Virus record (IMG/VR): IMGVR_UViG_2541047752_000007
Span: 1-52,139 of that record
Origin: a virus
Taxonomy: Duplodnaviria > Heunggongvirae > Uroviricota > Caudoviricetes
Reading direction: 5' to 3' (one strand)
Length of the DNA: 52,139 nucleotides
Shown: positions 3,974 through 50,071 of the stretch, piece by piece
How the letters are laid out: every line of letters starts with the position of its first letter
How positions within the stretch are numbered: the stretch's first letter is position 1
Made by a program: the position numbers and the translations under genes
Notes under the pieces: generated by a model
The model's database searches: none
Told to the model about the DNA's origin: nothing
What the model saw: only the letters and a program-made list of their open reading frames with translations

Positions 3974-3991
3974 TATGTCATTACCTCCGGT

Positions 3992-5110
3992 TTACAAAAT
4001 GGAATATTCAGGGTAATAAACAAAGCGCCCAATTTCCCCATGATCCGGGCTGTAAATAATCACCGCTGCCAGACGCCGCGACCGCCAGCCGCCATTAGTT
4101 GAATATGCGTCTTTGCCAGCTAATGTGCCGTGGTGCTCAACTATTCCAAGTGATGTTTCAACAACTGATTGATGGTGCAGATGTCCAGTGTGAGCGTAAA
4201 CAGCCACAGACCTCCCGAAATCCTCCCGCCAGTCAGATACGCAAGCCGACAATAAATTTTCCGGCTTTTTGATAGTGTGCCCGTGGTGGTAAGCAAGGAA
4301 TGTTTTGCCGTACTGTGTGTGGTGGACGATAGCAGGGGACACATCAACAGTTACGCGCGGTTCATCTTCGTAAAAAGCCGCCAGCGCCGCACGTAGCCAA
4401 ATCATGCCAGACTGATCGTGATTGCCTGATAGTACCTGGATTTCAATATCCTTATGATTTAACAACATCTTTCCTACCGCCAGACGTACCGCTCGGATCG
4501 CTACATAGACAAGTTTTGCATAGCGTGAATCGCAATCCAGTACGTGATTGCTTGATGGCGTAACTGGCAACAGCCCGTCAGTGTGAAGAACATCCCCACC
4601 GAGAAGCAAAACAGCTTTTTCAGACATCGGCGCAGCGCCCACCGCGTAGTCAAAGAATTCATTCAACACGCGTTCAGCGATCCCAGTGTCGTAGCTCTCG
4701 CCGCATTCAGCTTTATGAGCAAGCGCCCCGATATGCAGATCAAATACCGGATAAAGGGCCAGGCTTTTTTGAAAATCAATTTCAGGCACTGGCACGGCCT
4801 CCGCGCGTGGTATTTCTTCCGTGAATGCGTCGCGGGCAGCTTCCATTAGCCTTTCCATTTCATCACGGTCACGGGCAGTTTTAATCCAGCGCATGACCGT
4901 ATTACCAGCCTTATCGACAAGAACAGATTCACCAGTAATGCCAAAACCAGGCGCGCGACGCGTTGATATTAAACCGCGTTTCGCCAGTTTTGCGCCTAGC
5001 CGCTCGACGTTGCGTTTTGACATGCCATATTTTTCAGCGATCTGCTTGTACGTTAAACCGTTGTTATATTCAGCGATCAATTGCTCATCGCTGATTTTTC
5101 TTTGCGACAT
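3992..5110 (-). CDS. HTH domain fused to calcineurin-like metallophosphoesterase
   Basis: 372 aa; N-terminal LTYKQIAEKYGMSKRNVERL HTH; phosphoesterase motifs FDLHIG, GGDVLHTDG, SGNHD, YHHGH, HTGHLHH. Confidence 0.6.
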   Translation of the reverse strand: MSQRKISDEQLIAEYNNGLTYKQIAEKYGMSKRNVERLGAKLAKRGLISTRRAPGFGITGESVLVDKAGNTVMRWIKTARDRDEMERLMEAARDAFTEEIPRAEAVPVPEIDFQKSLALYPVFDLHIGALAHKAECGESYDTGIAERVLNEFFDYAVGAAPMSEKAVLLLGGDVLHTDGLLPVTPSSNHVLDCDSRYAKLVYVAIRAVRLAVGKMLLNHKDIEIQVLSGNHDQSGMIWLRAALAAFYEDEPRVTVDVSPAIVHHTQYGKTFLAYHHGHTIKKPENLLSACVSDWREDFGRSVAVYAHTGHLHHQSVVETSLGIVEHHGTLAGKDAYSTNGGWRSRRLAAVIIYSPDHGEIGRFVYYPEYSIL

Positions 5111-5143
5111 AATGTTATTTCCTCATGTTTACATTTTGTATAT

Positions 5144-5866
5144 TTATTGACAACAAACAATCTCTTTATATGTTTCTTCTACCATGTCGAATACTTCCGG
5201 CCTGTAATAAAAAAATTCAGTGCTACCATCAAACTTAACAGGGAAGTTTATTTTATAGTCACTGAAAGCATCGTGCATTTTGCTTTCTATTTCCTGCATA
5301 ATCTCAGTAGGCCCATTCCATGTTTTAACTACCTGTAAATCAGTCAGCCTTACACCTGCCTTACGAGCACTTTTAAATACTCTGTTCCTCCTTTCGTTCT
5401 CTTTTACGCTTACACCAATTTTCATTTGTGTAGGCACTTCAAGATCATCAACCATGATGTAAAGTTTTCCGTTGTAGTGTGATAAAAACCCGTATTTAGC
5501 GCATTTCGGGCAACCGCGCCCGCTCTTAATGTCTCTAGGTTTAGCCGACCACTCATGATCACAAACCTTGCAGCGGCATAATACTTTTGTACTGTTATTA
5601 ACTATTTCAACCAGCACTTCAATATCAGGATTAACCTTAGCAATAGCCGATATTTGTTCTTCATGCGATAACTTCATATTCCCAGCGCATTTCTGGCAAC
5701 CACGTCCATATTTAATATTGCTAGGTGTAGCCGACCATTCATGGTTACAAACTTTGCAGCGACATAATACTTTTGTACTGTTATTAACAATTTCCCCTAA
5801 CACTTCAACATCAGGATTAACTTTCGCGATAGCTGCAACTTGTTCTTCATGTGTTAACTTGCGCAT
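5144..5866 (-). CDS. T5orf172 (GIY-YIG-like) domain protein with duplicated N-terminal zinc ribbon
   Basis: 240 aa; two copies of HEEQxAAIAKVNPDxEVLxEIVNNSTKVLCRCKVCxHEWSA...GRGCxKCA; C-terminal GKLYIMVDD...KIGVS...TEFF matches T5orf172 pattern. Confidence 0.5.
   Translation of the reverse strand: MRKLTHEEQVAAIAKVNPDVEVLGEIVNNSTKVLCRCKVCNHEWSATPSNIKYGRGCQKCAGNMKLSHEEQISAIAKVNPDIEVLVEIVNNSTKVLCRCKVCDHEWSAKPRDIKSGRGCPKCAKYGFLSHYNGKLYIMVDDLEVPTQMKIGVSVKENERRNRVFKSARKAGVRLTDLQVVKTWNGPTEIMQEIESKMHDAFSDYKINFPVKFDGSTEFFYYRPEVFDMVEETYKEIVCCQ
5490..5866. repeat. intragenic tandem duplication, about 180-bp unit x2
   Basis: 5570-5700 and 5750-5870 are near-identical (e.g. gcagcggcataatacttttgtactgttattaac vs gcagcgacataatacttttgtactgttattaac). 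Confidence 0.8.
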
Positions 5867-6005
5867 CGCTCCAACTCCTTAAGAACATCATGCGCGCTAC
5901 AACGCAAAAACCCACCGCGACACCCGTTTGCACAGGTTGCAGTGTCTTATTGCGTCAGAGACGCCATCAGGTGGCTAATTTTCGATTTACAGAATGGTAG
6001 GTAGG

Positions 6006-6107
6006 TTATGGATTGATTAGCAGGTACAGACCGCCGAACAAGGCGACGTTAACAGCGATTGCCGCAGCGATGGCAAAAGCCAGGGCGAAAACGTGTTTAC
6101 CGTCCAT
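6006..6107 (-). CDS. small hydrophobic peptide (33 aa, one predicted TM helix)
   Basis: Hand-translated MDGKHVFALAFAIAAAIAVNVALFGGLYLLINP; GAGAGGA RBS about 8 nt upstream; below ORF-track cutoff. Confidence 0.35.
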   Translation of the reverse strand: MDGKHVFALAFAIAAAIAVNVALFGGLYLLINP

Positions 6108-6240
6108 TTTAAAATCCTCTCTGTAACGCTCTATAACGAGCTAATCGCAAAAAGGTAAGCAAGTGTAGCACCACATGCGATTTAGCTCGCTGGTGAGGTT
6201 GTTTTGTGGGTAATTTTGGATTTTTGCGGATCGTGATTGG

Positions 6241-7293
6241 TCAAAGAACGCCAGCGCGCGTATCACGTAGCGTTTTTGGTTTAAGCAGGAAATCAAGTGT
6301 CGCGGTGAAGCCATCGCCGAAGTAAAAATCTGAAGCCGTGTTTTTGAACGTTTCGAAGTAGGCGACAAAGCCGTTAATGCTTTTGTCTTTCAGGTAGTCA
6401 GTGAACGCATAGATCTTGCGTTCAAGATCCCGATCCAGTTCGGCAGGTGGTAACAGGCCGTCAAACGTGCTGTTAAATGCTTCCACCACGTCGGCAGCGT
6501 TTACAGTGGCTGACAGTTTGCGCCATTGTTCAGCATCAGTCAGATACCCATCAAATTTAGTTACCCGGCAAATGTTGATAGGCTTAGGTACTCCACCACG
6601 GCTACGCCATTGGGTTAAAGCCCACTCAATTACTAACGTGATCTCATTCTCCGTATACGCTTTACGTGTTTTTGTTTCTGTCAGTAGTTCTACGAATGGC
6701 TTAGCATCACGACATTTGCATCCTGCCTTGTCGTTGTAGAAGGCAAGGCAACGCAATGCCGCTTCGTTTACGCCATCCTGATTGACCATTTTTTGTTCAT
6801 TTTCGACAATACACGAAGTGTATATATCTTTTTCTCTTTCTTTTTCTACTTCTAATTCTAATTCATGACCCTTTCCTGACCCGGTCATGACCCTATCATG
6901 ACCTTTTTGTGTTGGATTGATTAACTTTTCTAATTTTAATTGCTCCTTCGCTGTGTTTATGGCGGCCCTGTAAGCGCTTTTAGAAGTCATTGATTGGTCC
7001 AGCCTTTTCAATAACTTTAAACAAGTTATGTGGCCTTGAGAACATTCAAACAAACCAATTTCGATGAAGTATTTCATCATTTCTTCTATACGTTTTTCAG
7101 TAGATCCGACGTTTCGAGCAATGATTCTCGCGTCATGTCGTAGGTCAAAAGTCAGATTGTGCTGATCTACGTCATAAGTTATTAGTTCGAGGCAATACCA
7201 ATAAAGCCCGTACCCTTCCAGGCCATAATCTAACAAAACGTTTTGAAGTTTTTCATCGCGGTTCGCATCGCTGTCATGCTTAAACCACTTCAT
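6241..7293 (-). CDS. phage replisome organizer / replication initiation protein (DUF4373-like N-terminus)
   Basis: 350 aa; N-terminus MKWFKHDSDANRDEKL...GLEGYGLYWYCLELI typical of Lin1244-like N-domain; GGAGGG RBS. Confidence 0.6.
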   Translation of the reverse strand: MKWFKHDSDANRDEKLQNVLLDYGLEGYGLYWYCLELITYDVDQHNLTFDLRHDARIIARNVGSTEKRIEEMMKYFIEIGLFECSQGHITCLKLLKRLDQSMTSKSAYRAAINTAKEQLKLEKLINPTQKGHDRVMTGSGKGHELELEVEKEREKDIYTSCIVENEQKMVNQDGVNEAALRCLAFYNDKAGCKCRDAKPFVELLTETKTRKAYTENEITLVIEWALTQWRSRGGVPKPINICRVTKFDGYLTDAEQWRKLSATVNAADVVEAFNSTFDGLLPPAELDRDLERKIYAFTDYLKDKSINGFVAYFETFKNTASDFYFGDGFTATLDFLLKPKTLRDTRAGVL

Positions 7294-7296
7294 AGA

Positions 7297-7554
7297 TCAT
7301 CCCTCCGGCAACATCACTACATAGACATCACTGAATGCATCAAGACGACAAACAAATCCTTTATCCATTAACGCGGCGAAGGCATCATGTACCGTATGAA
7401 CAGGAAGTTCACACATTGCGGCTACTTCTTTGCGTGATGCATCATGTACCCGTCCTTTGTTATCTGCCTTTTCAGCCAGAGCCATTAAGACAAGTTTTTG
7501 AATCGGGCTATTAAGTTTTACGTTCCATGCTTTACTAATCATGTTTATACTCAT
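7297..7554 (-). CDS. winged-helix DNA-binding protein (HTH_36-like)
   Basis: Start moved to ATG 7554 (GGAGA RBS); KLVLMALAEKADNKGRVHDASRKEVAAMCELPVHTVHDAFAALMDKGFV resembles HTH_36; first gene of leftward operon. Confidence 0.5.
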   Translation of the reverse strand: MSINMISKAWNVKLNSPIQKLVLMALAEKADNKGRVHDASRKEVAAMCELPVHTVHDAFAALMDKGFVCRLDAFSDVYVVMLPEG

Positions 7555-7662
7555 CGCATTTTCTCCTATGGTTAGAGTGAACGCGCGGGCGGGCATCCCA
7601 TTAGCATTAGATAGCAGTGACTGACCGCTCAACAGATCCCGCCGTTGCGTGATATTTGTTTT

Positions 7663-7696
7663 TCGCTTCGCAGCGACACCGGATTTTTAAAGAGCA
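7663..7696 (-). promoter_or_regulatory. candidate nut-like site (boxA plus boxB hairpin), leftward operon
   Basis: Minus strand reads TGCTCTTTAAAAATCCGG then hairpin TCGCT-GCGA-AGCGA; resembles remembered lambda nutL CGCTCTTAAAAATTAA plus boxB. Confidence 0.35.
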
Positions 7697-7821
7697 TAAG
7701 GTAAGTGCCTTTTTGTGCCTTCCGTTATCTTTTTCCTTGCGTCTTTGCAAGTATGGCCTTACCTTGTCTGCAAGTTTACAAAATGGAATTTTAAGATCAA
7801 GGCTTAAAATACACGTTTTGT

Positions 7822-7850
7822 GACTTGCATCAAACTTTTTGAGGTTATAG
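7822..7850 (+). promoter_or_regulatory. weak PRM-like promoter for the repressor gene, possibly leaderless mRNA
   Basis: GTGACT-N18-TTATAG ending about 9 nt before the cI ATG at 7860; no SD upstream of ATG. Confidence 0.3.
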
Positions 7851-7859
7851 GGTAGCGAC

Positions 7860-8507
7860 ATGAAAACAAAATGGTATGACTTAGCAAAGCAGCTCATGCG
7901 GGCGCAGGGCATGAGCCAGGATTCGCTCGCGGATCGTATGGGGATAACTAAAGGCGGCCTGTCACACTGGCTGAACGGTCGCCGAGAGCCAAATCTTGAA
8001 GATATTGCGCGGATTATGCGCGAGCTTGGTCGTCGGCAGTTTACTGTTACACATGATGGCATGGTCATTGATGATTCTGTTTCTAATACACTTCAGGCCG
8101 TGCCGCCGCGTGATTTAGGTAGTTACCCGGTTATTGACTGGAAGGACACAGTAAACAATATGGATGACGCAAGGCGTTCAGCATTACGACACGTTACGAC
8201 TAGCGTTATTTGTTCAGATGACAGTTACTGGCTGGTTGCCAAAGGTGAATCAATGAACGCGCCGCAGGGGTTGAGCATCCCGGCGGGGACGATGATACTT
8301 GTGGACCCGCACGCGCCAGCTATTGACGGCAAACTGGTTATAGCCCAGCTTGAGGAAGGGCAGATACCGACGTTTAAACAGTTGATTATTGATGGAGGTC
8401 AAAGGCTTTTACGTTCGCTCAATCCGCTGTATCCGCCAATCCCTATGAATCCAGAATCAAAAATTATAGGCGTGGTGGTTGATGCGAAGATCGTAAACCT
8501 GCCATAA
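7860..8507 (+). CDS. CI-like phage repressor (HTH_XRE plus S24 LexA-like peptidase)
   Basis: 215 aa; N-terminal HTH MSQDSLADRMGITKGGLSHWLNGRR; C-terminal GESM (Ser) and VVDAK (Lys) autocleavage dyad. Confidence 0.85.
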   Translation: MKTKWYDLAKQLMRAQGMSQDSLADRMGITKGGLSHWLNGRREPNLEDIARIMRELGRRQFTVTHDGMVIDDSVSNTLQAVPPRDLGSYPVIDWKDTVNNMDDARRSALRHVTTSVICSDDSYWLVAKGESMNAPQGLSIPAGTMILVDPHAPAIDGKLVIAQLEEGQIPTFKQLIIDGGQRLLRSLNPLYPPIPMNPESKIIGVVVDAKIVNLP

Positions 8508-8512
8508 ACATT

Positions 8513-8538
8513 AGCCGCCGAATGGCGGCTTTTCTTTG
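8513..8538 (+). terminator. rho-independent terminator after repressor gene
   Basis: agccgcc-gaat-ggcggct stem-loop followed by tttctttg. Confidence 0.5.
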
Positions 8539-8630
8539 CCTGGAAAACACCAAAACGTAAACAGAAAACGTTATTTATTATTTAAATATCAATGGCATAT
8601 AAAATATTTTAAAAAAGTATACAAAATGGA

Positions 8631-8659
8631 TTGACTCGATGTTTTACGGGGCGTATATT
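8631..8659 (+). promoter_or_regulatory. strong sigma70-like promoter (pL-like) for rightward early operon
   Basis: TTGACT-N17-TATATT; immediately preceded by the recurring tatacaaaatgga motif. Confidence 0.55.
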
Positions 8660-8701
8660 GCGAGTCAAAGGAAGGGCGCAGGTAACAAAAGCAACTTCCT
8701 G

Positions 8702-8718
8702 GCACTTTAAAAATCAGG
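8702..8718 (+). promoter_or_regulatory. candidate boxA-like element in 340-nt leader
   Basis: GGCACTTTAAAAATCAGG shares CTTTAAAAATC with the minus-strand boxA-like site at 7679-7696. Confidence 0.3.
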
Positions 8719-9007
8719 CTTAACACCTTGTCAACCGTGGAGTAACTCCCCGATGGGGGACCGAAAGCGGCACTGATAACAAGGCGCATGGGGTGTTTAA
8801 AGCGTTACATCCCCCACGAAACCGCACGCAAGGCGACGAGTCAGCTTGCTTGGAGTGAGCAAGGTCACGCCGGGAACGGCGATGATTGCGGGATTAGTTG
8901 AAAGATGTTAAGCCGCTCATTAACAATCTGGTCAGCCGCTGGAAGTGCGGCAATTAACGAAGATGATTTTTTATTAAGTATCATCAAGGATATACGGAGA
9001 TCAGATT

Positions 9008-9298
9008 ATGAGCGTTACAATTATATATGGTAAATGTGATAGCAAAATGAATGCCAGGGAACGCAGAAGGATAAAAAGAGAAAACGAAAGAAAATCATCA
9101 CCTGCAATCAATAAAACAGACAATGTGGATAAAGCTATTCGATTTGCAAACGAGGAAAGATGCAAACCAAATAGCATTAAAGAACGTCGCAAAGGATCAG
9201 TAAAATGGTATACGGAAAATGAAAGCGGCAGCTACTACCACGCAACGCAACCACGCCATTTAGGGGAAAAACCCCTGGATAAAGTCCGCTACCATTAA
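9008..9298 (+). CDS. basic protein with arginine-rich N-terminal motif, possible N-like antiterminator
   Basis: 96 aa; NARERRRIKRENERK resembles an arginine-rich RNA-binding motif; first gene after promoter and long leader. Confidence 0.35.
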   Translation: MSVTIIYGKCDSKMNARERRRIKRENERKSSPAINKTDNVDKAIRFANEERCKPNSIKERRKGSVKWYTENESGSYYHATQPRHLGEKPLDKVRYH

Positions 9299-9328
9299 TA
9301 CAAAATGTAAACATCCGGAGATGACATT

Positions 9329-9451
9329 ATGGTTATTCAGGCGCTTCAATTCAAACTGGCAGTAGCGGAAATGCTTCACGATGCCGAAATGTGGAGCGCC
9401 GCGAATAAAGCCTTATACATAGTGTTAACAGCACGGGAGATTAAATGGTGA
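9329..9451 (+). CDS. hypothetical small protein (40 aa)
   Basis: Hand-translated MVIQALQFKLAVAEMLHDAEMWSAANKALYIVLTAREIKW; GGAG RBS; stop overlaps erf start. Confidence 0.3.
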   Translation: MVIQALQFKLAVAEMLHDAEMWSAANKALYIVLTAREIKW

Positions 9452-10089
9452 AAACAGAGTTACATAAAAAGCTATGGACGATTCAGCAAACGCTGAACGC
9501 GCCGAAAAATCAGCGTAATAATTTTGGTGGATATAATTACAGGTCGGCGGAGGATATTTTAGAGGCGGTTAAACCACTGCTTCAAAATATCACGCTGACT
9601 GTTAGTGATGAAATTGTCCTGATCGGCAATCGCTATTATGTGAAAGCAACGGCGACGCTAAGCGACGGTGAAGACGTAATAGCGGTAACTGCTTATGCCA
9701 GGGAGGAAGAAAACAAGAAGGGTATGGACGCCAGCCAGCTAACAGGAGCAACATCAAGTTACGCGCGTAAATATGCTTTGAACGGTTTATTCTGTATAGA
9801 TGATGCTCGCGATCCTGATACTGATGCTTACGCGAAGCAGACAGGCCAGCAGCCGCGACAACAGAAAAACCCACCAAAACAACAACCGCAGCAGAAGAAA
9901 GCGCCGCCAAATCCTGATGAAGTATTAGCACGTTTCTGTGATGCAGCAGCGAAAGCGCAGGACGCTAACAAGCTGCGTGAAATATTTGGCAAATGCTGGA
10001 AATTACTACCGGAAGGATCGGAACATCGAATCAAGGCAAAAGATGTTTATGACATCCGGGTCGCAGAGCTTAACGGGGAGATGGGTTAA
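9445..10089 (+). CDS. erf: ERF-family single-strand annealing protein
   Basis: 214 aa; NFGGYNYRSAEDILEAVKPLL and overall ERF-like pattern; followed directly by ssb. Confidence 0.8.
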   Translation: MVKTELHKKLWTIQQTLNAPKNQRNNFGGYNYRSAEDILEAVKPLLQNITLTVSDEIVLIGNRYYVKATATLSDGEDVIAVTAYAREEENKKGMDASQLTGATSSYARKYALNGLFCIDDARDPDTDAYAKQTGQQPRQQKNPPKQQPQQKKAPPNPDEVLARFCDAAAKAQDANKLREIFGKCWKLLPEGSEHRIKAKDVYDIRVAELNGEMG

Positions 10090-10508
10090 TGAGTTTGAAT
10101 TCAATTACGCTGGGCGGGAATATCGGAAACGACATGGAAGTTCGCTACACGCAAAACGGTAAAGCGATTGGTAGTTTTCCGTTAGCTGTAACGAATGGCT
10201 ACGGTGATAACAAGCGGACAATGTGGATCACTTGCCTGGTATTTGGTGAGCGTGCGGAAAAATTAGCGCCACATATCCGCAAGGGTGGAAAAATAGTGGT
10301 AAGCGGTCGCCTGGATGTTCGGCAATATGACCGGAACGACGGCACGAAGGGGACTGCGGTAGAAGTGGCGGTTAATGAATTTGAATTCATGAATGTTAAC
10401 CAACAAGGCCAGCAGCAAGGACAGCAGCAGAAAGCGCCGCCGCAGCAGCAGAATAATAACGGGAATAATCCGCCTCCGATGGACTTCGACGACGATATTC
10501 CTTTTTAG
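10089..10508 (+). CDS. ssb: single-stranded DNA-binding protein
   Basis: 139 aa; OB-fold N-terminus, Gln/Gly-rich linker, acidic tail DFDDDIPF. Confidence 0.9.
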   Translation: MSLNSITLGGNIGNDMEVRYTQNGKAIGSFPLAVTNGYGDNKRTMWITCLVFGERAEKLAPHIRKGGKIVVSGRLDVRQYDRNDGTKGTAVEVAVNEFEFMNVNQQGQQQGQQQKAPPQQQNNNGNNPPPMDFDDDIPF

Positions 10509-10524
10509 AATCAATGTGTTAGCG

Positions 10525-10803
10525 ATGAGTGATTATCTAAAACCGCCACCGCAACCACGAACAAAAGAGCAAGTATTAAAAGAAGCCCGCGATCAAATCG
10601 ATCGCGGGCTTTTTTTATGCGGCACGGCAGCGGATCGAATGGCGAAAAGATTTAGTGACCTGTACGCGAAGCAAATCTGGTTTGACAACTGGCGAGCGAG
10701 TTCTTACCCGCTACAGAAAACTGATGATATGCAGTGGCCTGAATATGTTGATCCACGAATGCGCAAATATCGCGGGCGTATGGGCAAGGTTATTAACGAT
10801 TAA
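10525..10803 (+). CDS. hypothetical protein (ORF spans a terminator-like hairpin)
   Basis: ORF-track frame 10393-10803 with first ATG at 10525; contains hairpin 10585-10617. Confidence 0.35.
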   Translation: MSDYLKPPPQPRTKEQVLKEARDQIDRGLFLCGTAADRMAKRFSDLYAKQIWFDNWRASSYPLQKTDDMQWPEYVDPRMRKYRGRMGKVIND

Positions 10804-10815
10804 TGAGGTATTACC

Positions 10816-11067: not shown

Positions 11068-11171
11068 AAAAGATTGCAATGTTATCCGCCGCCGTTGCTG
11101 TGGCGGCTGTTTACCTTAGTGCGTCACTCTATATCACTGTGGCGATTGTTAAGCTGATTACTGACATGTGA
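11064..11171 (+). CDS. small single-TM peptide (35 aa)
   Basis: MKKIAMLSAAVAVAAVYLSASLYITVAIVKLITDM; GGAGGGTGG RBS; ATGA overlap with upstream stop. Confidence 0.4.
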   Translation: MKKIAMLSAAVAVAAVYLSASLYITVAIVKLITDM

Positions 11172-11178
11172 GGTTTAT

Positions 11179-12705: not shown

Positions 12706-12804
12706 CCGAGTAATTCCGATCACATAAATATACATTTTGTATTGTGATTGTATATCCGTTTTGTAAGCCGAAATCAAAAGGTTTACGGTGCGGAGGAAGC
12801 AAAA

Positions 12805-13023
12805 ATGGAACGCGAATTGATGCTTTATTGCGTAGAAGGTGGCGTAGGTCACGATGCCTACGTCGCCGGGAAAGACTATCCAGCCGATGAAGTGCTTTCT
12901 AATATGCACTTCAGAGAAAATGAAAGCCAGGTGTCTGTGTGGAAACGGTGTATTGATGGTATTGAGGTTGTAAGTATCGAACGGTATTTAGGCACGTTTG
13001 ATTACGGTGTTATTGAGGCTTAA
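12805..13023 (+). CDS. hypothetical protein
   Basis: ORF-track frame 12748-13023, ATG MERELML at 12805. Confidence 0.35.
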   Translation: MERELMLYCVEGGVGHDAYVAGKDYPADEVLSNMHFRENESQVSVWKRCIDGIEVVSIERYLGTFDYGVIEA

Positions 13024-16262: not shown

Positions 16263-16422
16263 TGTTTACAAAATGGCGTCATTGTGTGATGTGGATCACA
16301 TAATGGCGCTTTATTGTTTGTTCGCATGTATCCGTTTTGTATACTTCAAACAAACAAAATGCTCTTTAAAAATCCGGTAACGCTGAAATGCGTAAAAATC
16401 ACCTGAAAAAGGAGAGAGCATT

Positions 16423-19328: not shown

Positions 19329-19626
19329 AGATCTACATTTAAACCTGAAAGGAGAATACTTTTACGCCATCCGGGCGGGAAAGAAGGTGGAGGAATACCG
19401 ACTTTATAATGACTATTGGCGTAAACGCCTGAAAGGGCGGGAATATGAACGCCTGATAATCAAGCTGGGGTATCCAGCCAGCCACGAAACACACCGGATC
19501 ATAAACCTGCCTTATTTCGGGTATGAAGTGAAAACTATCACACATCCATTGTTCGGCCCTGATCCTGTTAAGGTATTCGCAATTAAATGTGATGTGAATT
19601 GGATGTTAAGGTGGGGTGAGCAATGA
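19318..19626 (+). CDS. ASCH-like (PUA-fold) protein
   Basis: LNLKGEYFYAIRAGKKVEEYRL fits ASCH N-terminal pattern; weak. Confidence 0.35.
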   Translation: MASKDLHLNLKGEYFYAIRAGKKVEEYRLYNDYWRKRLKGREYERLIIKLGYPASHETHRIINLPYFGYEVKTITHPLFGPDPVKVFAIKCDVNWMLRWGEQ

Positions 19627-37200: not shown

Positions 37201-37240
37201 TATACAAAATGTATTCGTTGAAATGAAGCCATTTTGTATA
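37201..37240. repeat. perfect 11-bp inverted repeat upstream of tape measure gene
   Basis: tatacaaaatg - 18 bp spacer - cattttgtata; 40 bp upstream of TMP start. Confidence 0.8.
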
Positions 37241-37279
37241 AAATAGAGGCATACATCACATTCTGCATGAGGTTAAATC

Positions 37280-40231: not shown

Positions 40232-40486
40232 TCACTTATGAGCGCCTTTCACTCCGCAATGACGGTTGTATTCCAGGTGATCGATAATTAACCAAATATT
40301 CAAATCTTCACTGAACAGCCGCCAGTCAGGATTGATATCGAATTTAAAGCCATAACCATCACGTAATTTTTTGGGGCGGGCTTCTTTTTTCAGGAAGGCG
40401 TTAAGCAACTTCTTGCCTTTCTTGATTACCCGTTCCTGTGCATTCTTTTGTGCTTTCAGGTTTTTTTCGATAGTTACCAGTTTCAT
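40232..40486 (-). CDS. hypothetical basic protein (84 aa)
   Basis: Lys-rich N-terminal half; possible toxin-like fold but no confident family. Confidence 0.4.
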   Translation of the reverse strand: MKLVTIEKNLKAQKNAQERVIKKGKKLLNAFLKKEARPKKLRDGYGFKFDINPDWRLFSEDLNIWLIIDHLEYNRHCGVKGAHK

Positions 40487-40659: not shown

Positions 40660-40772
40660 TTTTGGGCCTCACTTGCTGGTACCGCTTTTCTTCTTGCTTC
40701 CTGTATACAGCTTGTTGCTTCATGTGTGAATCCATATTGTAAACTAGCTATAATTCTTGTGATGAATATCTC

Positions 40773-40796
40773 ATTTTTCGCGTAGAAGCGCGTAAA
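40773..40796 (+). promoter_or_regulatory. conserved 24-bp motif upstream of tail gene M (copy 2)
   Basis: atttttcgcgtagaagcgcgtaaa, followed by tatacaaaatgtaa motif and RBS. Confidence 0.5.
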
Positions 40797-40830
40797 GATA
40801 TATACAAAATGTAACTTACAGGAGGGGGGT

Positions 40831-41833: not shown

Positions 41834-42082
41834 CTATAGGCTATCACGCAGATAATTAACGCCCTTATCAGTGACGAATGAATGATTAACCTGGTTTTCA
41901 TCCGTCATGATGATGAATAACTTTTCCTGTAGGTATTTCGCTTTCGGGTACAGCGTTAAGCAGACCTGGTACAAAATCCCGCGCTCAATCAGCAAATCAA
42001 TAAATTCGTGCTCATGATAACCGATAAGGCGGGCGGCCTGCTTCAACGTGTACACATAATCACTGTGATTGCGCCGCGCCAT
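41834..42082 (-). CDS. putative HTH DNA-binding protein
   Basis: 82 aa; YTLKQAARLIGYHEHEFIDLLIERGIL helix-turn-helix-like. Confidence 0.4.
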   Translation of the reverse strand: MARRNHSDYVYTLKQAARLIGYHEHEFIDLLIERGILYQVCLTLYPKAKYLQEKLFIIMTDENQVNHSFVTDKGVNYLRDSL

Positions 42083-42606: not shown

Positions 42607-42736
42607 TAACGCACCTCCGCGCCATTTTGTTAACTCCTCCTTCGTTTGAGTAAAATATACATATTGTAAAAACCACGATCAATCCATTTTGGTATGATTT
42701 GGCGTGACGCAGATCACAAAATGACAAGGTGAGAAA

Positions 42737-43441: not shown

Positions 43442-43443
43442 TT

Positions 43444-44175
43444 ATGGCACTTGAAGACAAAATGGTTCGCTACGCCGCAGCTCACCCGCGTGAGGAAGTT
43501 TGCGGCCTGGTGATAAATAACGAATATTTTTACCCGTGCGCTAACGTATCTGAAACGCCATACAACAGCTTCAAAATTTCGCCGGACGATTACATCAAAG
43601 CTGACGAATTAGGCGTTATAACCGCCGTTTTTCACTCTCACGTTGATGATATTCCGGTATTGTCTGCGCTGGATCGACAACAACAGGTTATTTCCGGCCT
43701 CCCGTGGCTTTTATGTTCCGGTGGCAGGGTTAGAAAATTCCGCCCGGTAGCGCACCTGTTAGGCCGAAAATTTGAGCACGGGAAAACAGACTGCTACGCG
43801 CTTTTCCGCGACGCATATCACCTTTGTGGCGTGGATCTGCCGGACTTCGAGCGCCTTGATGGCTGGTGGCTTCGCGGTGAAAACCTGTATTTAAAAAACT
43901 TGCCGCGAAACGGGTTTTATCAGGTTGATGCGCAAAGCATCCAGCCAGGTGACGTAATAATCAGGCAGCCGTTCAAAGGCGCTGACCCATGCCACGCGAT
44001 GATTTACCTGGGCGATAACACTGTTTTGCATCATGACAATGCCGGACTGTTAAGCCGCCGCGAGCAAATGCGGCCCGCTTATGTTCGACAAACGCATTCA
44101 ATATGGAGATCTGATAAATGCTCAAATTTAGATTTACGGGCAATCTTCGAAGATATTACAGCAAAGTGTGTTTAA
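43444..44175 (+). CDS. K: tail assembly protein K (MPN/JAB plus NlpC/P60-like)
   Basis: 243 aa; HSH.D metal motif, downstream Cys/His region; position after L. Confidence 0.8.
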   Translation: MALEDKMVRYAAAHPREEVCGLVINNEYFYPCANVSETPYNSFKISPDDYIKADELGVITAVFHSHVDDIPVLSALDRQQQVISGLPWLLCSGGRVRKFRPVAHLLGRKFEHGKTDCYALFRDAYHLCGVDLPDFERLDGWWLRGENLYLKNLPRNGFYQVDAQSIQPGDVIIRQPFKGADPCHAMIYLGDNTVLHHDNAGLLSRREQMRPAYVRQTHSIWRSDKCSNLDLRAIFEDITAKCV

Positions 44176-44648
44176 ACGTTGAAACGCCAGCGCAAGGGCT
44201 TCGCTTATTGACCGCGCAGAATCAGGAATTCAAGAAGGCGTTTTTAAACACTCCTTTGCGCTTACGAATTGCCGGGAAAGATTACGACGAAAAGACCGCG
44301 CCAGCTGCGGTTAATAGCAAATATCCAGATGGAACTACTGTGATTATTGCGCCAATAGTGGAAGGTGGTATTGCAGGTATTGGTGTGATCGGCTGGATTA
44401 TGATTGGGATATCAGTTGTCAGTGTCGCTTTTTCTATTTTTATGTCTCGCAACATGAAGGTAAAAACATCATCAGAAAGCGCACAGGACAACACCATAAC
44501 TAATAACACTTACACCAGCATAGAAAACAGGGTAGGCCAGGGTAGACCAGTGCCAATTTTATTAGGCGAAATGAAAGTAGGTTCAAACGTCGGATCGTTA
44601 GGCATAGACACAACCAACAATAAAGACGCCTTAGACGTTGTAAGTTAA
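44118..44648 (+). CDS. I: tail assembly protein I
   Basis: 176 aa; hydrophobic Gly-rich central segment; overlaps K end as in lambda. Confidence 0.7.
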   Translation: MLKFRFTGNLRRYYSKVCLNVETPAQGLRLLTAQNQEFKKAFLNTPLRLRIAGKDYDEKTAPAAVNSKYPDGTTVIIAPIVEGGIAGIGVIGWIMIGISVVSVAFSIFMSRNMKVKTSSESAQDNTITNNTYTSIENRVGQGRPVPILLGEMKVGSNVGSLGIDTTNNKDALDVVS

Positions 44649-44662
44649 CAGGAGAAATAACC

Positions 44663-47600
44663 ATGAGTAGCGGCGGCGGCAAAGCAAAAACACCGACTTT
44701 GATTAATGATAACCTTTATCACAAACAGTTTTATCGTGTGCTGGATATTATTTCGGAAGGTCCGATTTATGGCCCTGTCAATACCAGTGCGCCATTAAAT
44801 AGCGTAATGCTTAATGACACTCCTGTAACTGACGCGAACGGTAATACCAGTATCCCTGGTGTTAGCGTTGCGTGGCGAAATGGTACTGCCGACCAGTCAC
44901 CAATCAACGGCTTTAATGCCATCGAATCAACGGTAATGGTTAACGCGCAGGTGAAGCACGACACGCCACTTGTAAGGACGGTATCAGATCCGAACGTGAC
45001 GCGAGTCCGGTTAAATATTGGCGTGGATTCACTGGTGGAAAGCGATAGCCAATCAAACCAGAAAGAAACATCTGTCATTATGGCGATCGACGTTAAACCG
45101 TCCTCATCCTCAACATGGTCGTCTATTAAGGCCGTGCAAATAGGTCCAGGTAAAATCAGCGGAGAATACCTTGAAGCGCATATTATTGATGCGCCAGATG
45201 AAAAGCCGTTTGATATTCGCGTTCGCCGCGTAACCGCTGATAACACAAGTGATCTATTGCAGAATGATACGCGGTGGAGTAGCTACAGCGAAATAATCGA
45301 CGATAATTTGTCTTATCCTCACACTGCTGTAGCAGGCGCGGTAATTGATCACGATCAGTATACTGACACACCTACACGCACTTATCACCTGCGTGGGCTT
45401 ATTGTTGACGTGCCTGATAACTACGACCCGGAAACGCGCACTTATTCCGGTTTATGGCTTGGCGGATTTAAACAGGCTTACACTAATAACCCTGCGTGGA
45501 TCTTTCGTTACCTGGTTAAAAACGAGCGTTTCGGCCTTGCCCGCCATGCTGGTTATATCGACGTTGACGACGGCGCATTATACACACTTTCCCAATACTG
45601 CGACCAGTTGGTCGATGATGGTTACGGTGGCCTTGAGCCTCGCGTGACGCTTAATGCGTACATAACAGAGCAAATGAGCGCCCGCGATTTGCTGGACAAT
45701 ATCGCCGGGATGTTCCGTGGCATCGCGTTATGGGACGGGCAACGTCTTACCGTAATGATTGATGCACCGCAAGATCCAATAGCCACCATTACGAATGCAA
45801 ACGTCGTTGATGGCGCGTTCACTCGTTCGAGTATCGCCCGTGCGGAATGCTACAACGCCGTGATCGTATCCTGGACTGACCCGGAAAACGGGTGGGAGCA
45901 GTCAAAAGAGTATGTAGCAGATGATGAGCTAATCGCCCGCGATGGTTACAACGAAACCACGATGGAGGCGTTCGGCTGTACGTCACGCGGGCAAGCGTAC
46001 CGCGCGGGCAAATGGCTGATAGAAACAGCAAAACGCGAGCCGTCAAAATTCACGTTTAAAATGGCACGTGACGCGATTCACTTTACGCCAGGGGATATAG
46101 TCGAAATCCTCGACAATAACCGCGCAGGTGCGCGTTTAGGTGGGCGTATCGTGGCGAACAATGGAAACGTGATAACGGTCGATAAGGTTGACAGCGACTA
46201 TATCACAGCAGGCGACACCATCAGCTTACTCGACAGCGACGGCAAATTTAAAAAACATCAGATTACTGGTGTAAACGGAAACGAAATCACACTAGCGGCG
46301 GCCCCGGCATGGATTCGGAACGGTACTGTATTTGCTGTATCCACCGAAGCGGCAAAACCCGTTTTATGCCGGATCACCAGTGTAGCCGAAACCGAAAATA
46401 ATAGCGTGTATACCATCGAAGCAGCGCAACATGACCCGAACAAACAAGCGGTAGTCGATGAAGGCGCGATATTTGAAATCAACAACGACACGCTTAATCA
46501 CTTCCGTGTCCCGAACATTGAAAACCTGAAAGTGGTAAACATCGGATCTGAAACAGTTCAATGCCGAGCTACATGGGAAACACAGACAACCACGCATCGC
46601 ATGACATTCGAGATCCGCATATACAATACTGATGGTGCGGTGGTTAAAAGCTACGAAACAACGAAATACAGTTATGATTTTTATGGTATTGACGCTGGCG
46701 CGTATTCGTTAGGCGTTCGCGGAAGAAACGATACTGGCATGAAAGGCGCTGAAAGCATTGTTGATCTTGTTATTGGTGCTCCAGCCGCGCCAGTTGGCGT
46801 AAATTGGGTTCCAGGCGTATTTCAGGCGACCGTGTACCCGATAAGCAAAACCACGCTTACTACCGATACGTCATATGAATTCTACTATGCAGGGGAAAAT
46901 CAGATCACAGATCCGGCAAAAATAACCACGTCGGCACAGTTTACCGGGCGCGGGTATCAGTGGACGTTCGGCGGCATGAATACGGGCCATACTTATTACG
47001 TTTATGTGCGCACTCGTAATGCTTTTGGTGTGTCTGATTTCGTCGAGGCATCAGGTAAGCCAACAGAGGATTTTGACGAAATCACTGATTACGTTACAAA
47101 GGATGTAATGGAATCAGAGCAATTCAAGGAGATGATTAGCGACATTAAAGATCTTGGTGATCGCACTGATATTGTAGAAGGAGCTACCGAAGACCTTAAA
47201 ATAGCTACAGAGGATCTTAAAGCTGACACAGATACACTTAAAAAAGACACCGAAGACCTTTATAAAAAAGTCGAAGAAAACGCCGATGAAATAGGCAAAC
47301 ATGAGGTAAGAATAGACTCATTAGAGGTATCAAACGAAAACGTTAACAACGAACTGGCACAGGCAAAAGCAAGTTTACAAAACGCTTCGCTTGCTCTGAT
47401 CAATAACTCGCTTGCTCAAACTAACACGCGGGTTACTCTTACCGCTCAATATAAGAAAGGTCGCAACGAAACAAAGGCACAGATTGACCGCATCGACAAC
47501 GTTATCGCAGAGGAGAAAAAAGCGACAGCGGAATCACTGGAAACCATCACAGCCGAAATAAATACGATAGACTCAAACATCAAAGGAGAAATAGCCCGCG

Positions 47601-48715
47601 TAGACAAAGCAATAGCAACCGAAACGCAGGCGAGAACGGAAGCTATAAGCAACGTTAACGCCAGTATCAGCAGCCTGGAAAACAAAACTGATGCGAGCGT
47701 TTCTCGTCTCGATCAAGCTATCGCTGACGAATCAAGCGCCCGCGCTCAGGCAATATCAGGAATCAGTGCGGAGCTTGGTCTTGTTGAAAATGAGGTTGAT
47801 AAAAACAGCAACGAAATAGATCAGGCGAAAGCAAGTCTGCAAAACGCCTCGATTGCACTTATCAACAACTCAATAGCGCAAAGCAAGATGAGCACCGTTA
47901 TTGAGGCGAAGTACAGGAAAGGCCAGACAAAAACAAAAGCGGAAATAGCAAGGATCGACACAGCAATAGCAGACGAAACCCAGGCCCGCGCGGAGGCTAT
48001 AGCATCACTTGAAGCCAATATTAATGAAAACATTTCAGCAAAAATAACAGATATATCAACGGCGCTCGCAACTCACGAGGCATCAAGTGCTGAAAAATTT
48101 GTCAAAATATCGGCATCTTTCGACGATGTAAATTCAAGTATCACGGAATGGTCACAGGCTATGGCAACGGCAGACGAGGCATTATCAACCAAAATTGATC
48201 AGCTAACAGTTACCGTTAACGGAAACACAACAGCTATCGAGACGACATCGAAAGCATTAACTGATTTCAAAGGTGACGTTAACGCATCATATTCAATCAA
48301 GATTGCCACTGATAACAACGGAATGAAATATGCCACTGGCATGTCGCTTGGCCTGACTGGTAGCGGTACGAACGCTCAATCGCAGTGTATTTTCCTCGTC
48401 GATCGCTTCGTGTTAATGACGGCAGCAAACGGCACATACACAACGCCTTTCTATGTCACTGGCGGAGCAATGTATGTACGTGAAGCGTTTATTAAGGACG
48501 CATCAATCACCAACGCGAAAATAGGTTCTTACATCCAGTCAAATAACTATGTTTCCGGCAGCACAGGCTGGAAACTTGATAAATCAGGTACATTCGAAAA
48601 CTACGGATCAGTAAGCGGTGAAGGAGCAATGAAATGGACGAACACAACTATCTCAGTAAAAGATGGTAATGGCGTGTTACGCGTCCAGGTTGGGCGAATT
48701 ACCGGATCATGGTAG
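44663..48715 (+). CDS. J: tail tip / host-specificity protein J (central tail fiber)
   Basis: 1350 aa; position after I; conserved J-like N-terminal two thirds; coiled-coil repeat region near C-terminus. Confidence 0.85.
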   Translation: MSSGGGKAKTPTLINDNLYHKQFYRVLDIISEGPIYGPVNTSAPLNSVMLNDTPVTDANGNTSIPGVSVAWRNGTADQSPINGFNAIESTVMVNAQVKHDTPLVRTVSDPNVTRVRLNIGVDSLVESDSQSNQKETSVIMAIDVKPSSSSTWSSIKAVQIGPGKISGEYLEAHIIDAPDEKPFDIRVRRVTADNTSDLLQNDTRWSSYSEIIDDNLSYPHTAVAGAVIDHDQYTDTPTRTYHLRGLIVDVPDNYDPETRTYSGLWLGGFKQAYTNNPAWIFRYLVKNERFGLARHAGYIDVDDGALYTLSQYCDQLVDDGYGGLEPRVTLNAYITEQMSARDLLDNIAGMFRGIALWDGQRLTVMIDAPQDPIATITNANVVDGAFTRSSIARAECYNAVIVSWTDPENGWEQSKEYVADDELIARDGYNETTMEAFGCTSRGQAYRAGKWLIETAKREPSKFTFKMARDAIHFTPGDIVEILDNNRAGARLGGRIVANNGNVITVDKVDSDYITAGDTISLLDSDGKFKKHQITGVNGNEITLAAAPAWIRNGTVFAVSTEAAKPVLCRITSVAETENNSVYTIEAAQHDPNKQAVVDEGAIFEINNDTLNHFRVPNIENLKVVNIGSETVQCRATWETQTTTHRMTFEIRIYNTDGAVVKSYETTKYSYDFYGIDAGAYSLGVRGRNDTGMKGAESIVDLVIGAPAAPVGVNWVPGVFQATVYPISKTTLTTDTSYEFYYAGENQITDPAKITTSAQFTGRGYQWTFGGMNTGHTYYVYVRTRNAFGVSDFVEASGKPTEDFDEITDYVTKDVMESEQFKEMISDIKDLGDRTDIVEGATEDLKIATEDLKADTDTLKKDTEDLYKKVEENADEIGKHEVRIDSLEVSNENVNNELAQAKASLQNASLALINNSLAQTNTRVTLTAQYKKGRNETKAQIDRIDNVIAEEKKATAESLETITAEINTIDSNIKGEIARVDKAIATETQARTEAISNVNASISSLENKTDASVSRLDQAIADESSARAQAISGISAELGLVENEVDKNSNEIDQAKASLQNASIALINNSIAQSKMSTVIEAKYRKGQTKTKAEIARIDTAIADETQARAEAIASLEANINENISAKITDISTALATHEASSAEKFVKISASFDDVNSSITEWSQAMATADEALSTKIDQLTVTVNGNTTAIETTSKALTDFKGDVNASYSIKIATDNNGMKYATGMSLGLTGSGTNAQSQCIFLVDRFVLMTAANGTYTTPFYVTGGAMYVREAFIKDASITNAKIGSYIQSNNYVSGSTGWKLDKSGTFENYGSVSGEGAMKWTNTTISVKDGNGVLRVQVGRITGSW
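47360..48010 (+). repeat. intragenic duplication in J C-terminal coiled-coil region
   Basis: QAKASLQNASLALINNSLAQ...YKKGRNETKAQIDRIDN repeated as QAKASLQNASIALINNSIAQ...YRKGQTKTKAEIARIDT about 460 bp later. Confidence 0.7.
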
Positions 48716-48764
48716 AATTAAGGGGCCGACTTGTTCGGCCTCATTTTATTATGGAGGTGTAATA

Positions 48765-49076
48765 ATGGCTACTTTCGGCGTGGCAACATGGGACGCCAAC
48801 GGAAATCCTAATAACTACGGAATTAAACCTTCCGTAGTAGTCGGCTATATTTCCCTATCTTCCGGGCAAGTATCCGGCACATATAATTTTACCGTTCCTA
48901 CAGGATGTAAATTATCATATGCTATGACGCTTGATTATGGCACAACATCATCAACGCGCAGAAAGATCAGTATTTCAGGCGGTACTGTTTCCATTTCCTC
49001 AGCAGGTGATACGGTTGGTGCTAATATATGGCCCGCATCGCAGTGTGAACTGGTTATTTTTACGGAGAGCGCATAA
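48765..49076 (+). CDS. hypothetical tail-associated protein (MATFG paralog 1)
   Basis: 103 aa from MATFGVATW; GGAGGTG RBS. Confidence 0.45.
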   Translation: MATFGVATWDANGNPNNYGIKPSVVVGYISLSSGQVSGTYNFTVPTGCKLSYAMTLDYGTTSSTRRKISISGGTVSISSAGDTVGANIWPASQCELVIFTESA

Positions 49077-49676
49077 ATGGCTACTTTCGGCGCTTATTTA
49101 CGTTTAAGTAATGGCAATATTTTCGTAACTCCAGATTCGACACCTATGTGCCTTTATTCGCGGGTTGCTCTAAATTCAAGCCAACAGCAAACAATAGCCG
49201 TTCCCAATGGTAAGCCTGTAATGGTATTCATAAAAAACACAAACGATACCGCTACTGGTGTAGCCTATCGCAATTCATCGTCTACCATAGTGATCCCACC
49301 TGGGAATGGTTATGCGTATATATTCAGCATCTTCCCACAATCGCGTCCTAAGTGGGGGATGGCTATATGGAACGCTTCAGGGGAACTGGTATTGACAAAC
49401 GAATCAAGAATATTAACAGACATTGTTACGGTAGGCACGGCTGGATCGAGTGGTGGGATTTATATTGATCAGACGTTATCAGGATCTTATGCGGTAGTTC
49501 CTCAGATATTGGGGGCCGCTGTAGGTATGGGTTCCGCAACAATATATACAGAATCATACTACAACGGCAGCAATACACGAATTCGCGGGAAGATGGTTGG
49601 TAGCTTGCAACAGATTTACGGTTACATTAATCACGGGAACGCTATCACCGCCATTAAAACCGACGCCTATGATTAA
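49077..49676 (+). CDS. hypothetical tail-associated protein (MATFG paralog 2)
   Basis: 199 aa starting MATFGAYL; N-terminal similarity to preceding gene. Confidence 0.45.
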   Translation: MATFGAYLRLSNGNIFVTPDSTPMCLYSRVALNSSQQQTIAVPNGKPVMVFIKNTNDTATGVAYRNSSSTIVIPPGNGYAYIFSIFPQSRPKWGMAIWNASGELVLTNESRILTDIVTVGTAGSSGGIYIDQTLSGSYAVVPQILGAAVGMGSATIYTESYYNGSNTRIRGKMVGSLQQIYGYINHGNAITAIKTDAYD

Positions 49677-49912
49677 TTCAGTTCCGGGCAATCCGTTTTC
49701 TTGAAGTGGTCAACGCTTACCCATTGGAAGTTAAACGGATACCCGGCCTTAACCATTTTATGACCGCCAACATCCGCGACACCGAAGACTGCAACCGCAT
49801 ATTCATTACCTCCAGCCTGATAAGTTGCCGTGCATTCACGTTTCGGCATATCAGCGCAACCAACCATACCAGCGACCATTGCAGCTATAGCGATATTTTT
49901 AAAGCCTTTCAT
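49673..49912 (-). CDS. small lipoprotein, Cor/Llp-like superinfection-exclusion candidate
   Basis: 79 aa from MKGFKNIAIAAMVAGMVGC (lipobox MVGC); GGAGGA RBS; reverse strand just downstream of J. Confidence 0.45.
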   Translation of the reverse strand: MKGFKNIAIAAMVAGMVGCADMPKRECTATYQAGGNEYAVAVFGVADVGGHKMVKAGYPFNFQWVSVDHFKKTDCPELN

Positions 49913-50071
49913 TGTCTTATCCTCCATTGTTCCGTCGGTTGTAGTATCCATAAACATCGTTTTCTCAACATTGATATAAATCAATAAATACATTTTGTAT
50001 AAACCAGAAATGTAACGCAGATCACAAAATGGTAAAATTACCAGGTTAATTAACATAATGGAGTCATTGCG

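Follow-up and report, generated by a model that had tools for sequence, protein, structure and literature searches.

What is the role of a short sequence element that recurs, almost unchanged, in regulatory gaps all over the genome of a temperate phage? This question is raised by the virus record IMGVR_UViG_2541047752_000007 (Caudoviricetes), whose 52,139 nucleotides were analysed as a whole and are called the window in the following. A sequence-only reading of this DNA had noticed a motif on both strands at many intergenic sites and had offered several explanations, among them sites for a phage regulator. The comparative evidence presented here makes it very probable that the motif is the operator of Rep, the prophage's own immunity repressor, and that this operator is dispersed beyond the flanks of the rep gene.

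The window shares 86-91% identity over most of its length with the coliphages mEp515, mEp010, mEp554 and MagusPhagus of the mEp021 group, and its immunity region is present in 35 of 5,426 complete E. coli genomes. By this resemblance it is a mEp021-like (mEpimmI) prophage of E. coli. The prophage of E. coli M15 was rejected as a source of coordinates, since it is identical in the immunity region only and mosaic elsewhere; the gene cor was identified from the M15 annotation.

The phages of the mEpimmI group are temperate, Nus-dependent, non-lambdoid siphophages and are reported to be as common as lambdoid phages in human faeces (PMC11893012). About 50 isolates and 48 sequenced genomes belong to a single immunity group, whereas 46 lambdoids from the same collection fall into 19 groups (PMC11893012). 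It has been demonstrated experimentally that Rep021 (gp15) confers immunity by blocking infection by every phage of the group, and the sequences of its operators are explicitly stated to be undefined (PMC11893012). The N-like protein Gp17 works at three nut sites in these phages, and induction by ultraviolet (UV) light was not seen for most mEpimmI lysogens (PMC11893012).

Enrichment, placement and anatomy of the motif

The word TACAAAATGKA has nine exact matches in the window, whereas 0.08 are expected from dinucleotide shuffles (Poisson P ~3e-16), which confirms the recurrence on both strands. TACAAAATG occurs in 11 copies (0.72 expected), and in an unbiased k-mer scan of the window its word family holds rank 1 at k = 8, 9 and 10. 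Both the 11-mer count and the k-mer ranking are independent of the position weight matrix used below, which was trained on the window's own sites and whose scores there are circular. The DNA had been regarded as AT-rich, but the GC content of the window is 43-50%. A literature search for the motif string returned only primers and microRNA sites.

Alignment of the copies widens the motif to T-W-TACAAAATG-K-A-W, which is 15 bp long. There are 15 strong sites, starting at 3991, 5128, 7775, 8618, 9297, 12729, 12753, 16265, 16329, 37201, 37226, 40729, 40801, 42656 and 49987; together with approximately nine weaker candidates they occupy at least 12 places. All copies listed by the sequence-only reading exist and lie at most 1-2 bp away from where they had been placed, the one at 9297, however, reads AATACAAAATGTAA and not TATACA. 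On a crude map of open reading frames (ORFs; 9.4% of the map non-coding), 10 of the 15 site centres fall into non-coding DNA (P = 1e-7). Four of the five apparently coding sites are artefacts of ORF calling, due to spurious ORFs (7656-7823 and 8589-8789) and over-extended starts (12748 and 50056), and the overlap of the fifth is limited to the last four codons of the gene at 3992-5110. The strong sites are essentially all non-coding.

The site forms a partial dyad around its middle A, with the positions +/-2, +/-3 and +/-5 being complementary in 87-100% of the 15 sites. This fits a dimeric DNA-binding protein, as had been proposed from the core. Seven of the 15 sites contain a perfect TACA-N3-TGTA; the left half T-W-TACA is almost invariant, and the right half is TGTA or, often, TGGA. 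Since the core TAC-N5-GTA alone is found only 13 times in the window, with 8.1 copies expected, the A/T-rich centre belongs to the preferred site, and sites whose centre is G/C-rich are considered as candidates only. The centres of paired sites are 24-25 bp apart (12736/12760, 37208/37233 and 42663/42688). Within the two unidirectional early operons, three sites are in forward and four in reverse orientation.

In three sites near start codons, exactly 19 nt separate the 11-mer from the ATG. An RNA hairpin or translational operator was considered for these three copies and dropped, since one of them is in the opposite orientation and a DNA dyad explains all of them. An Rfam search of positions 7500-9400 gave only sub-threshold chance matches and thus no support for an element at the RNA level.

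The sites are found at the same positions in mEp021, mEp515 and three divergent E. coli prophages, so the motif is indeed present at equivalent places in related phages. In five relatives the sites have a mean identity of 93%, compared to 87% for their flanks, and many are kept at 15 of 15 positions amid flanks of 78-88%. Footprints over six genomes revealed additional conserved weak sites, so that the tape-measure gene is preceded by an array of three sites and the tail gene L by one of four, and the -10 hexamers at the edges of sites are conserved as well.

Link between the motif and the repressor family

The gene rep (7860-8507, plus strand) encodes an immunity repressor of the CI/LexA type with the recognition helix region GITKGGLSHWLNGRREP. 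Both Pfam domains, HTH_3 (helix-turn-helix, HTH; 1.5e-12) and Peptidase_S24 (5.8e-19), score above the cut-off. The closest solved structure is full-length lambda CI (3BDN, E = 1.4e-20), to which Rep aligns at residues 15-208 over both domains, including the cooperativity domain. The N-terminal domain of Rep is approximately 97% identical to that of Rep021. The two strongest conserved elements flanking rep, at the predicted promoters P_L and P_R, are copies of the motif.

The spread of the motif over early, replication and late regions had been taken to make a CI operator unlikely. However, the same dyad constitutes the canonical O_L and O_R of lambdoid and P22-like cousins. Its presence at O_L and O_R of phages whose CI has the recognition helix of Rep argues for a CI-type operator, of which only the distribution is unlike lambda. 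Among the explanations offered beforehand, the site for a phage regulator is therefore the one borne out, with the motif being tied to the Rep family.

The Erwinia phage Midgardsormr38 is a classical lambdoid possessing cI, cro, cII, O and P, and its CI is 45% identical to Rep (helix GITKGAVSHWLNARREP versus GITKGGLSHWLNGRREP). In its 50 kb the weight matrix finds only five matches, three in the cI/cro gap, one of which overlaps the -10 of P_R, and two at the position of O_L. The spacing of these sites (25 bp in O_L and 26 bp in O_R) matches the 24-25 bp of the pairs in the window. Enterobacter phage ENT1, Klebsiella phage KPP5665-2 and Salmonella phage L possess repressors with N-terminal domains 52-59% identical to that of Rep and carry ATAC-N5-GTAT sites on both sides of the repressor gene and almost nowhere else (KPP5665-2 has one extra match away from it). 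Counting sites with scores of at least 14, there are 16 at 12 loci in the window and 12-17 at 9-13 loci in its five mEpimmI relatives, whereas the four comparators, lambdoid or P22-like, have 2-3 at 1-3 loci. The Klebsiella phage Sin4 was rejected as a comparator for co-variation, since it is virulent, T1-like and not comparable.

A scan of viral contigs for the inverted motif pair returned many matches that are relatives of the window, and 81 unrelated loci. In the latter, all 11 HTH matches resembling the N-terminal domain of Rep lie in immunity-type regions containing the motif. Seven of these 11 are located within 300 bp of the motif pair, with approximately 12% of the DNA being that close (P = 6e-5), and they stem from at least five lineages, including phages with low GC content. 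The pairing of operator and helix appears to be widespread among unrelated phages. His36 of the recognition helix is invariant in nine Rep-like proteins; Vibrio phage H8, with a more diverged helix, has the shifted variant ATTAC-N5-GTAAT.

Three-site arrays of TATACAAAATGTATA stand directly upstream of a small HTH gene in the low-GC (~25% GC) viral contigs L008, L015, L019, L050 and L120, and also in L037 and L118. The HTH helices beside these arrays (…ISHYINGRR, …YSHIENGRN) resemble that of Rep.

It might be argued that another phage regulator binds the motif, be it a Cro-like protein, the MarR-like protein encoded at 1915-2508 or a protein from one of the cassettes, and that Rep uses other operators. 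Indeed, Cro and CI share operators in lambdoids, the Cro proteins of the comparators show the same (S/G/N)-H-Y helix signature as CI, and further HTH proteins are encoded in the window. However, a search of the window with four comparator Cro proteins found no homolog except Rep itself, and the gene divergent from rep encodes the N-terminal domain of an O-like replication initiator and not Cro. Furthermore, the motif accompanies HTH genes of the Rep type in unrelated phages, which have no further gene in common with the window, and the P_L and P_R regions have no repeated element in common besides the motif and the nut boxA words. Judged by these matches, Rep is the only protein of the window with the relevant helix; since, in addition, the rep-divergent gene is O-like, a different phage regulator is quite improbable. 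The rep-divergent gene (7297-7632, minus strand) matches PHROG 4617 (E = 4e-22, N-terminal winged HTH of O-like initiators) and is elsewhere annotated as 'MarR/HTH'.

Map of sites and predicted promoters

The positions of the putative operators, here simply called operators, relative to predicted promoters, nut sites and genes are as follows.

3991-4005, plus strand: strong operator TTTACAAAATGGAAT, with its centre 25 bp before the start codon of the helicase gene (ATG at 3973, minus strand); 14-15 of 15 positions kept in five relatives; extends over the final four codons of the exonuclease gene upstream
5128-5142, minus strand: strong operator TATACAAAATGTAAA, located in a gap of 33 bp, with its centre 25 bp before the ATG (5110, minus strand) of an exonuclease-like gene
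7682-7695, minus strand: boxA of nutL, downstream of P_L
7773-7778 (-10) and 7795-7800 (-35), minus strand: predicted P_L, TTGATC-16-TAAACT
7775-7789, plus strand: strong operator TTTACAAAATGGAAT separating rep from the leftward operon, within the spacer and -10 of P_L; weaker variant TTTACAGAATGG in relatives
7810-7824, minus strand: weak candidate operator GTCACAAAACGTGTA, 35 bp from the centre at 7782, inverted repeat I1; kept in relatives, low matrix score
8618-8632, plus strand: strongest operator TATACAAAATGGATT, overlapping the -35 of P_R by 2 bp; 15 of 15 positions in all five relatives, with flanks 81-95% identical
8631-8659, plus strand: predicted P_R, TTGACT-17-TATATT; hexamers conserved, spacer variable
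8643-8657, plus strand: candidate auxiliary operator TTTACGGGGCGTATA with perfect TAC/GTA half-sites and a G/C-rich centre, inside the spacer and -10 of P_R, 25 bp from the centre at 8625
8702-8715: boxA of nutR1, followed by the N-like gene (9008-9298), both after P_R
9297-9311, plus strand: strong operator AATACAAAATGTAAA directly 3' of the N-like stop codon, centre 25 bp before the ATG of a 39-aa ORF (9329)
12729-12767, minus strand: two operators, AATACAAAATGTATA and CTTACAAAACGGATA, with 24 bp between their centres, located upstream of the gene at 12805; in relatives, the second one continues into TAAACT, which resembles a -10
16265-16279, plus strand: strong operator TTTACAAAATGGCGT, overlapping the 5' arm of a terminator hairpin (16275-16310); 15 of 15 positions in five relatives
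16318-16345, plus strand: predicted third early promoter, TTGTTC-16-TATACT; TTGT and TATACT conserved amid variable flanks
16329-16343: strong operator (TATACAAAACGGATA on the minus strand) covering the spacer and -10 of the third early promoter
16361-16374: boxA of nutR2, ~10 nt downstream of the third early promoter
37201-37240: two operators in inverted arrangement, TATACAAAATGTATT / TATACAAAATGGCTT, with 25 bp between their centres, flanked by a cassette gene on the opposite strand and by the tape-measure gene (ATG 37280); the site on the right continues into TATAAAAT
37255-37269, minus strand: degenerate third site CATGCAGAATGTGAT, 29 bp beyond the pair and 18 bp before the tape-measure ATG; better match in relatives (CATACAAAATGTGAT in mEp515)
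40729-40743: strong operator (minus strand: TTTACAATATGGATT) within the spacer that precedes an invariant TATAAT
40729-40754, plus strand: predicted rightward promoter before the tail gene M, with TATAAT at 40749-40754
40801-40815, plus strand: strong operator TATACAAAATGTAAC, centre 23 bp upstream of the start of M (40831); degenerate in three relatives
42619-42727: four-site cluster between the antirepressor-like cassette (minus strand) and the tail gene L (ATG 42737), with a strong site at 42656-42670 and weak ones at 42619-42633, 42681-42695 and 42713-42727, all four conserved in six genomes; the weak site at 42681-42695 overlaps the extended -10 TGGTATGAT (42690-42698)
49987-50001: strong operator (TATACAAAATGTATT on the minus strand) between cor (start 49912, minus strand) and the tail-fibre gene (50072)
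50021-50035: weak site overlapping the extended -10 TGGTAAAAT at 50030-50038

Copies close upstream of start codons had been noticed before, and in fact six sites have their centres 17-25 bp upstream of starts where the gap is very short, namely those before helicase, exonuclease, the 39-aa ORF, M, L and tape measure. There are three copies of the published boxA word in the window, each of them downstream of an operator. Among the tail genes, the cassettes on the opposite strand, for example cor and the genes of a ParE-like toxin and an antirepressor-like KilAC protein, carry operators at their promoter end, which is the upstream side of the next tail gene. The genes of the ParE-like toxin domain protein (40232-40486, minus strand) and of the antirepressor-like KilAC protein (41834-42082, minus strand) each lie behind an operator cluster. 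Since the window has no match to the LexA box CTGT-N8-ACAG and lack of UV induction has been reported, the antirepressor-like gene may bear on induction.

The surroundings of some sites are worth describing. Upstream of the site at 5128-5142 there is a gene for a GIY-YIG/HNH-type endonuclease, which in relatives is replaced by a zinc-ribbon, BRO or Rha gene, with a motif-like word kept at the junction. The motif-like word AAAACAAAATGGTAT at 7863-7877 is coding; it covers codons 2-6 of rep, is kept in relatives and might be an autoregulatory site. The untranslated leader of ~340 nt between P_R and the N-like gene (8660-9008) contains nutR1, is 97% identical in three phages and thereby more conserved than most coding DNA, and has no match in Rfam. 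The 39-aa ORF (9329-9448, plus strand) belongs to PHROG 34942, a conserved phage family without assigned function, and has a weak likeness to lambda Kil (Lambda_Kil in Pfam, E = 2e-4, which falls short of the family's cut-off). The ORF at 49673-50056 (minus strand) encodes an exclusion lipoprotein resembling Cor, for which the ATG at 49912 is the probable start (Shine-Dalgarno sequence GGAGGA, lipobox AGMVGC); the 127-aa version of cor (RefSeq, E. coli M15 homolog) has 48 extra residues without a signal peptide. The neighbouring gene at 50072-51862 (plus strand) had been called a phosphoesterase gene, but it is the tail-fibre gene (PHROG 1419, E = 6e-228).

Generic sigma-70 and terminator scans were not above shuffled background in these regions and were not used as evidence alone; each promoter assignment is therefore a prediction. 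The motif might mainly serve host RNA polymerase as a promoter element, be it an UP element or a -10, plain or extended, preceded by a T-tract, and might recur because many promoters of the phage are alike. Several copies, when read toward the downstream gene, run into TAAACT, TATACT, TATAAA, TGGTATGAT or TGGTAAAAT, and one copy abuts a -35. However, the position of the copies relative to promoter hexamers varies between the spacer, the -10, the region upstream of the -35 and 17-25 bp before an ATG, and both orientations occur. The conserved part CCATTTTG has no role in sigma-70 recognition, and an in-register TAnnnT is present in only six of the 15 sites (hand count), which is near the ~28% estimated from base composition. 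The UP-like role suggested beforehand requires a position at -40 to -60, upstream of a -35; only the copy at 8618-8632 stands there, all others being located in spacers, over a -10 or by ribosome-binding sites. Moreover, the same dyad is restricted to operator positions in the lambdoid comparators, and overlap with a -10 is normal operator behaviour. A primary function as promoter element is thus very improbable.

A second dyad next to the operators

A second dyad, TGTGA-N6-TCACA with at most one mismatch, occurs in six copies in the window, compared to 1.3 expected:

7819-7834, 16285-16300, 40758-40773, 42703-42718 and 50011-50026: copies sharing regulatory gaps with operators
19527-19542: coding copy

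All six mEpimmI genomes contain 5-7 copies at the same loci and at fixed offsets of 19-47 bp from the operator centres, with conserved half-sites and variable centres. The dyad is absent in three lambdoid comparators, and ENT1 has two copies, neither of them near an operator. It matches the consensus of E. coli CRP, but its offsets from the predicted start sites fit no single class of CRP promoters. The second dyad could be bound by host CRP or by a second phage regulator. An identical 17-bp block, ACGCAGATCACAAAATG, is located just upstream of the L and tail-fibre genes (42707-42723 and 50015-50031) and consists of half of the CRP-like box and a weak operator.

The dispersed intergenic sites, typical of global regulators, and the CRP-box-like dyad accompanying several of them could also indicate that the main motif belongs to a host protein, nucleoid-associated or global, that was recruited by the phage. 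This explanation, too, had been raised by the sequence-only reading. However, the motif accompanies the repressor gene in hosts of four genera. It occupies the operators on the flanks of this gene in phages of Erwinia, Enterobacter, Klebsiella and Salmonella and even in phages of low-GC hosts, always beside an HTH gene with the same recognition helix. To our knowledge, it fits no consensus of an E. coli regulator (LexA, CRP, TyrR, GntR-type, IHF and others). A host protein as the principal binder is therefore extremely improbable.

There is hardly any chance that the sites are module-boundary linkers that promote mosaic recombination and have no regulatory role, since, although homology to some relatives ends at or next to the sites at 5128, 3991, 16265 and 37201 and the flanking cassettes differ, breakpoints are not nearer to the sites than to random intergenic positions (13 of 199 versus 9.1 +/- 4.1, P = 0.2), many sites lie in regions collinear in all relatives, and the link to the repressor family accounts for the sequence itself.

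Proposed mode of action and comparison with known systems

From dyad symmetry, site spacing and site positions we infer the following scheme. A dimer of Rep would bind the partial dyad T-W-TAC-AAAAT-G-K-A-W, and sites 24-25 bp apart would be filled cooperatively, as in lambda. Cooperative binding is consistent with the pair spacing and with the conserved C-terminal domain of Rep. Two classes of sites can be distinguished.

Operators of the first class overlap predicted promoters, so that bound Rep would block initiation there. This would concern the leftward early promoter P_L, with an operator in its spacer and -10, the rightward early promoter P_R and a third early promoter just upstream of nutR2. 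In the tail region, it would concern the putative promoters that restart transcription of M, L and the tail-fibre gene after the opposite-strand cassettes, as well as the divergent promoters of the cassettes themselves. A third repressor-controlled early promoter ~10 nt before nutR2 would explain why phages of the mEpimmI group have three nut sites. The second class comprises the short-gap sites 17-25 bp before start codons, which may act as stoperator-like roadblocks or cover minimal promoters.

With lambda-type CI systems the window shares a two-domain repressor (an HTH of the Cro/CI type plus S24), Rep aligning with lambda CI over both domains, a dyad operator of ~15 bp, sites on both sides of the repressor gene, overlapping predicted divergent early promoters, and a spacing of 24-26 bp between neighbouring sites. 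With Midgardsormr38, ENT1, KPP5665-2 and Salmonella phage L/ST64T, even the operator sequence itself is common. In contrast to lambda, the sites are not confined to two clusters but also lie inside the early operons and among the tail genes, no Cro homolog was found in the window, and rep is followed by a terminator and then by P_R instead of being divergent from it.

Dispersed operators are known from other phages. The Cluster A mycobacteriophages L5, Bxb1 and TipsytheTRex have more than 20 stoperators throughout the genome, which are bound by one repressor and are thought to silence the whole prophage; these are asymmetric 13-mers, recognized by a monomer with two DNA-binding domains and working in one orientation relative to transcription (PMC9283540). 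The window resembles these phages in having many sites in promoters and short intergenic gaps, with the 17-25 bp class corresponding to the short-gap class, but it differs by the partial dyad of ~15 bp, the CI-like HTH_3 and S24 repressor and the mixed orientation of its sites. For C1 of P1, a temperate phage of E. coli, 22 operators have been reported, each with its own transcription unit and each an asymmetric 17-mer (ATTGCTCTAATAAATTT; PMC8546580). Common to both systems is a primary repressor with many dispersed operators, while the operator of P1 differs in sequence and is not a dyad. P1 is a plasmid prophage, and its C1 is not known to be related to the HTH_3/S24 family. The repressor of the Streptomyces phage phiC31 recognizes palindromic inverted repeats in many intergenic regions throughout the genome; its family and host differ from those of Rep.

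Several points weigh against Rep as the repressor acting at these sites. The whole case rests on comparison of sequences, and the matrix scores of the window's sites suffer from the circularity mentioned above. The promoters are predictions from regions in which generic sigma-70 scans remain at background. The strong site at P_R is centred near -41, which is the geometry of lambda CI activating P_RM and not of repression; repression of P_R would hang on the weak candidate site at 8643-8657, which is unscored by the weight matrix. In most relatives, a weaker site (TACAGAATGG) stands between rep and the leftward operon. Finally, a purely repressive model does not account for the operator upstream of cor, since this exclusion gene is normally expressed in lysogens; this operator suggests that Rep may not be purely a repressor.

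Taken as a whole, the scheme would make Rep a CI-type genome-wide silencer of approximately eight promoters, combined with roadblocks at start codons, a lock on immunity and an additional input via the second dyad. We regard this joint interpretation as tentative and somewhat doubtful in its entirety.

Conclusions

An operator sequence and a full map of sites can now be proposed for Rep of the mEpimmI phages. They suggest that a classical pair of CI-type repressor and operator can be used either in the compact layout of lambda or in a dispersed layout like that of P1 and L5. If the joint interpretation were true, the stoperator principle would have been invented independently in a coliphage, and the second dyad near many operators would add an input from host CRP or another phage protein. 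Moreover, the need for approximately 15 operators to co-evolve with their repressor would lock the specificity of immunity. Since the operators are spread over the whole genome, the immunity cassette would not be exchangeable as a unit, and the dispersed operators would account for the one immunity group of the mEpimmI phages as opposed to the 19 groups of the lambdoids.

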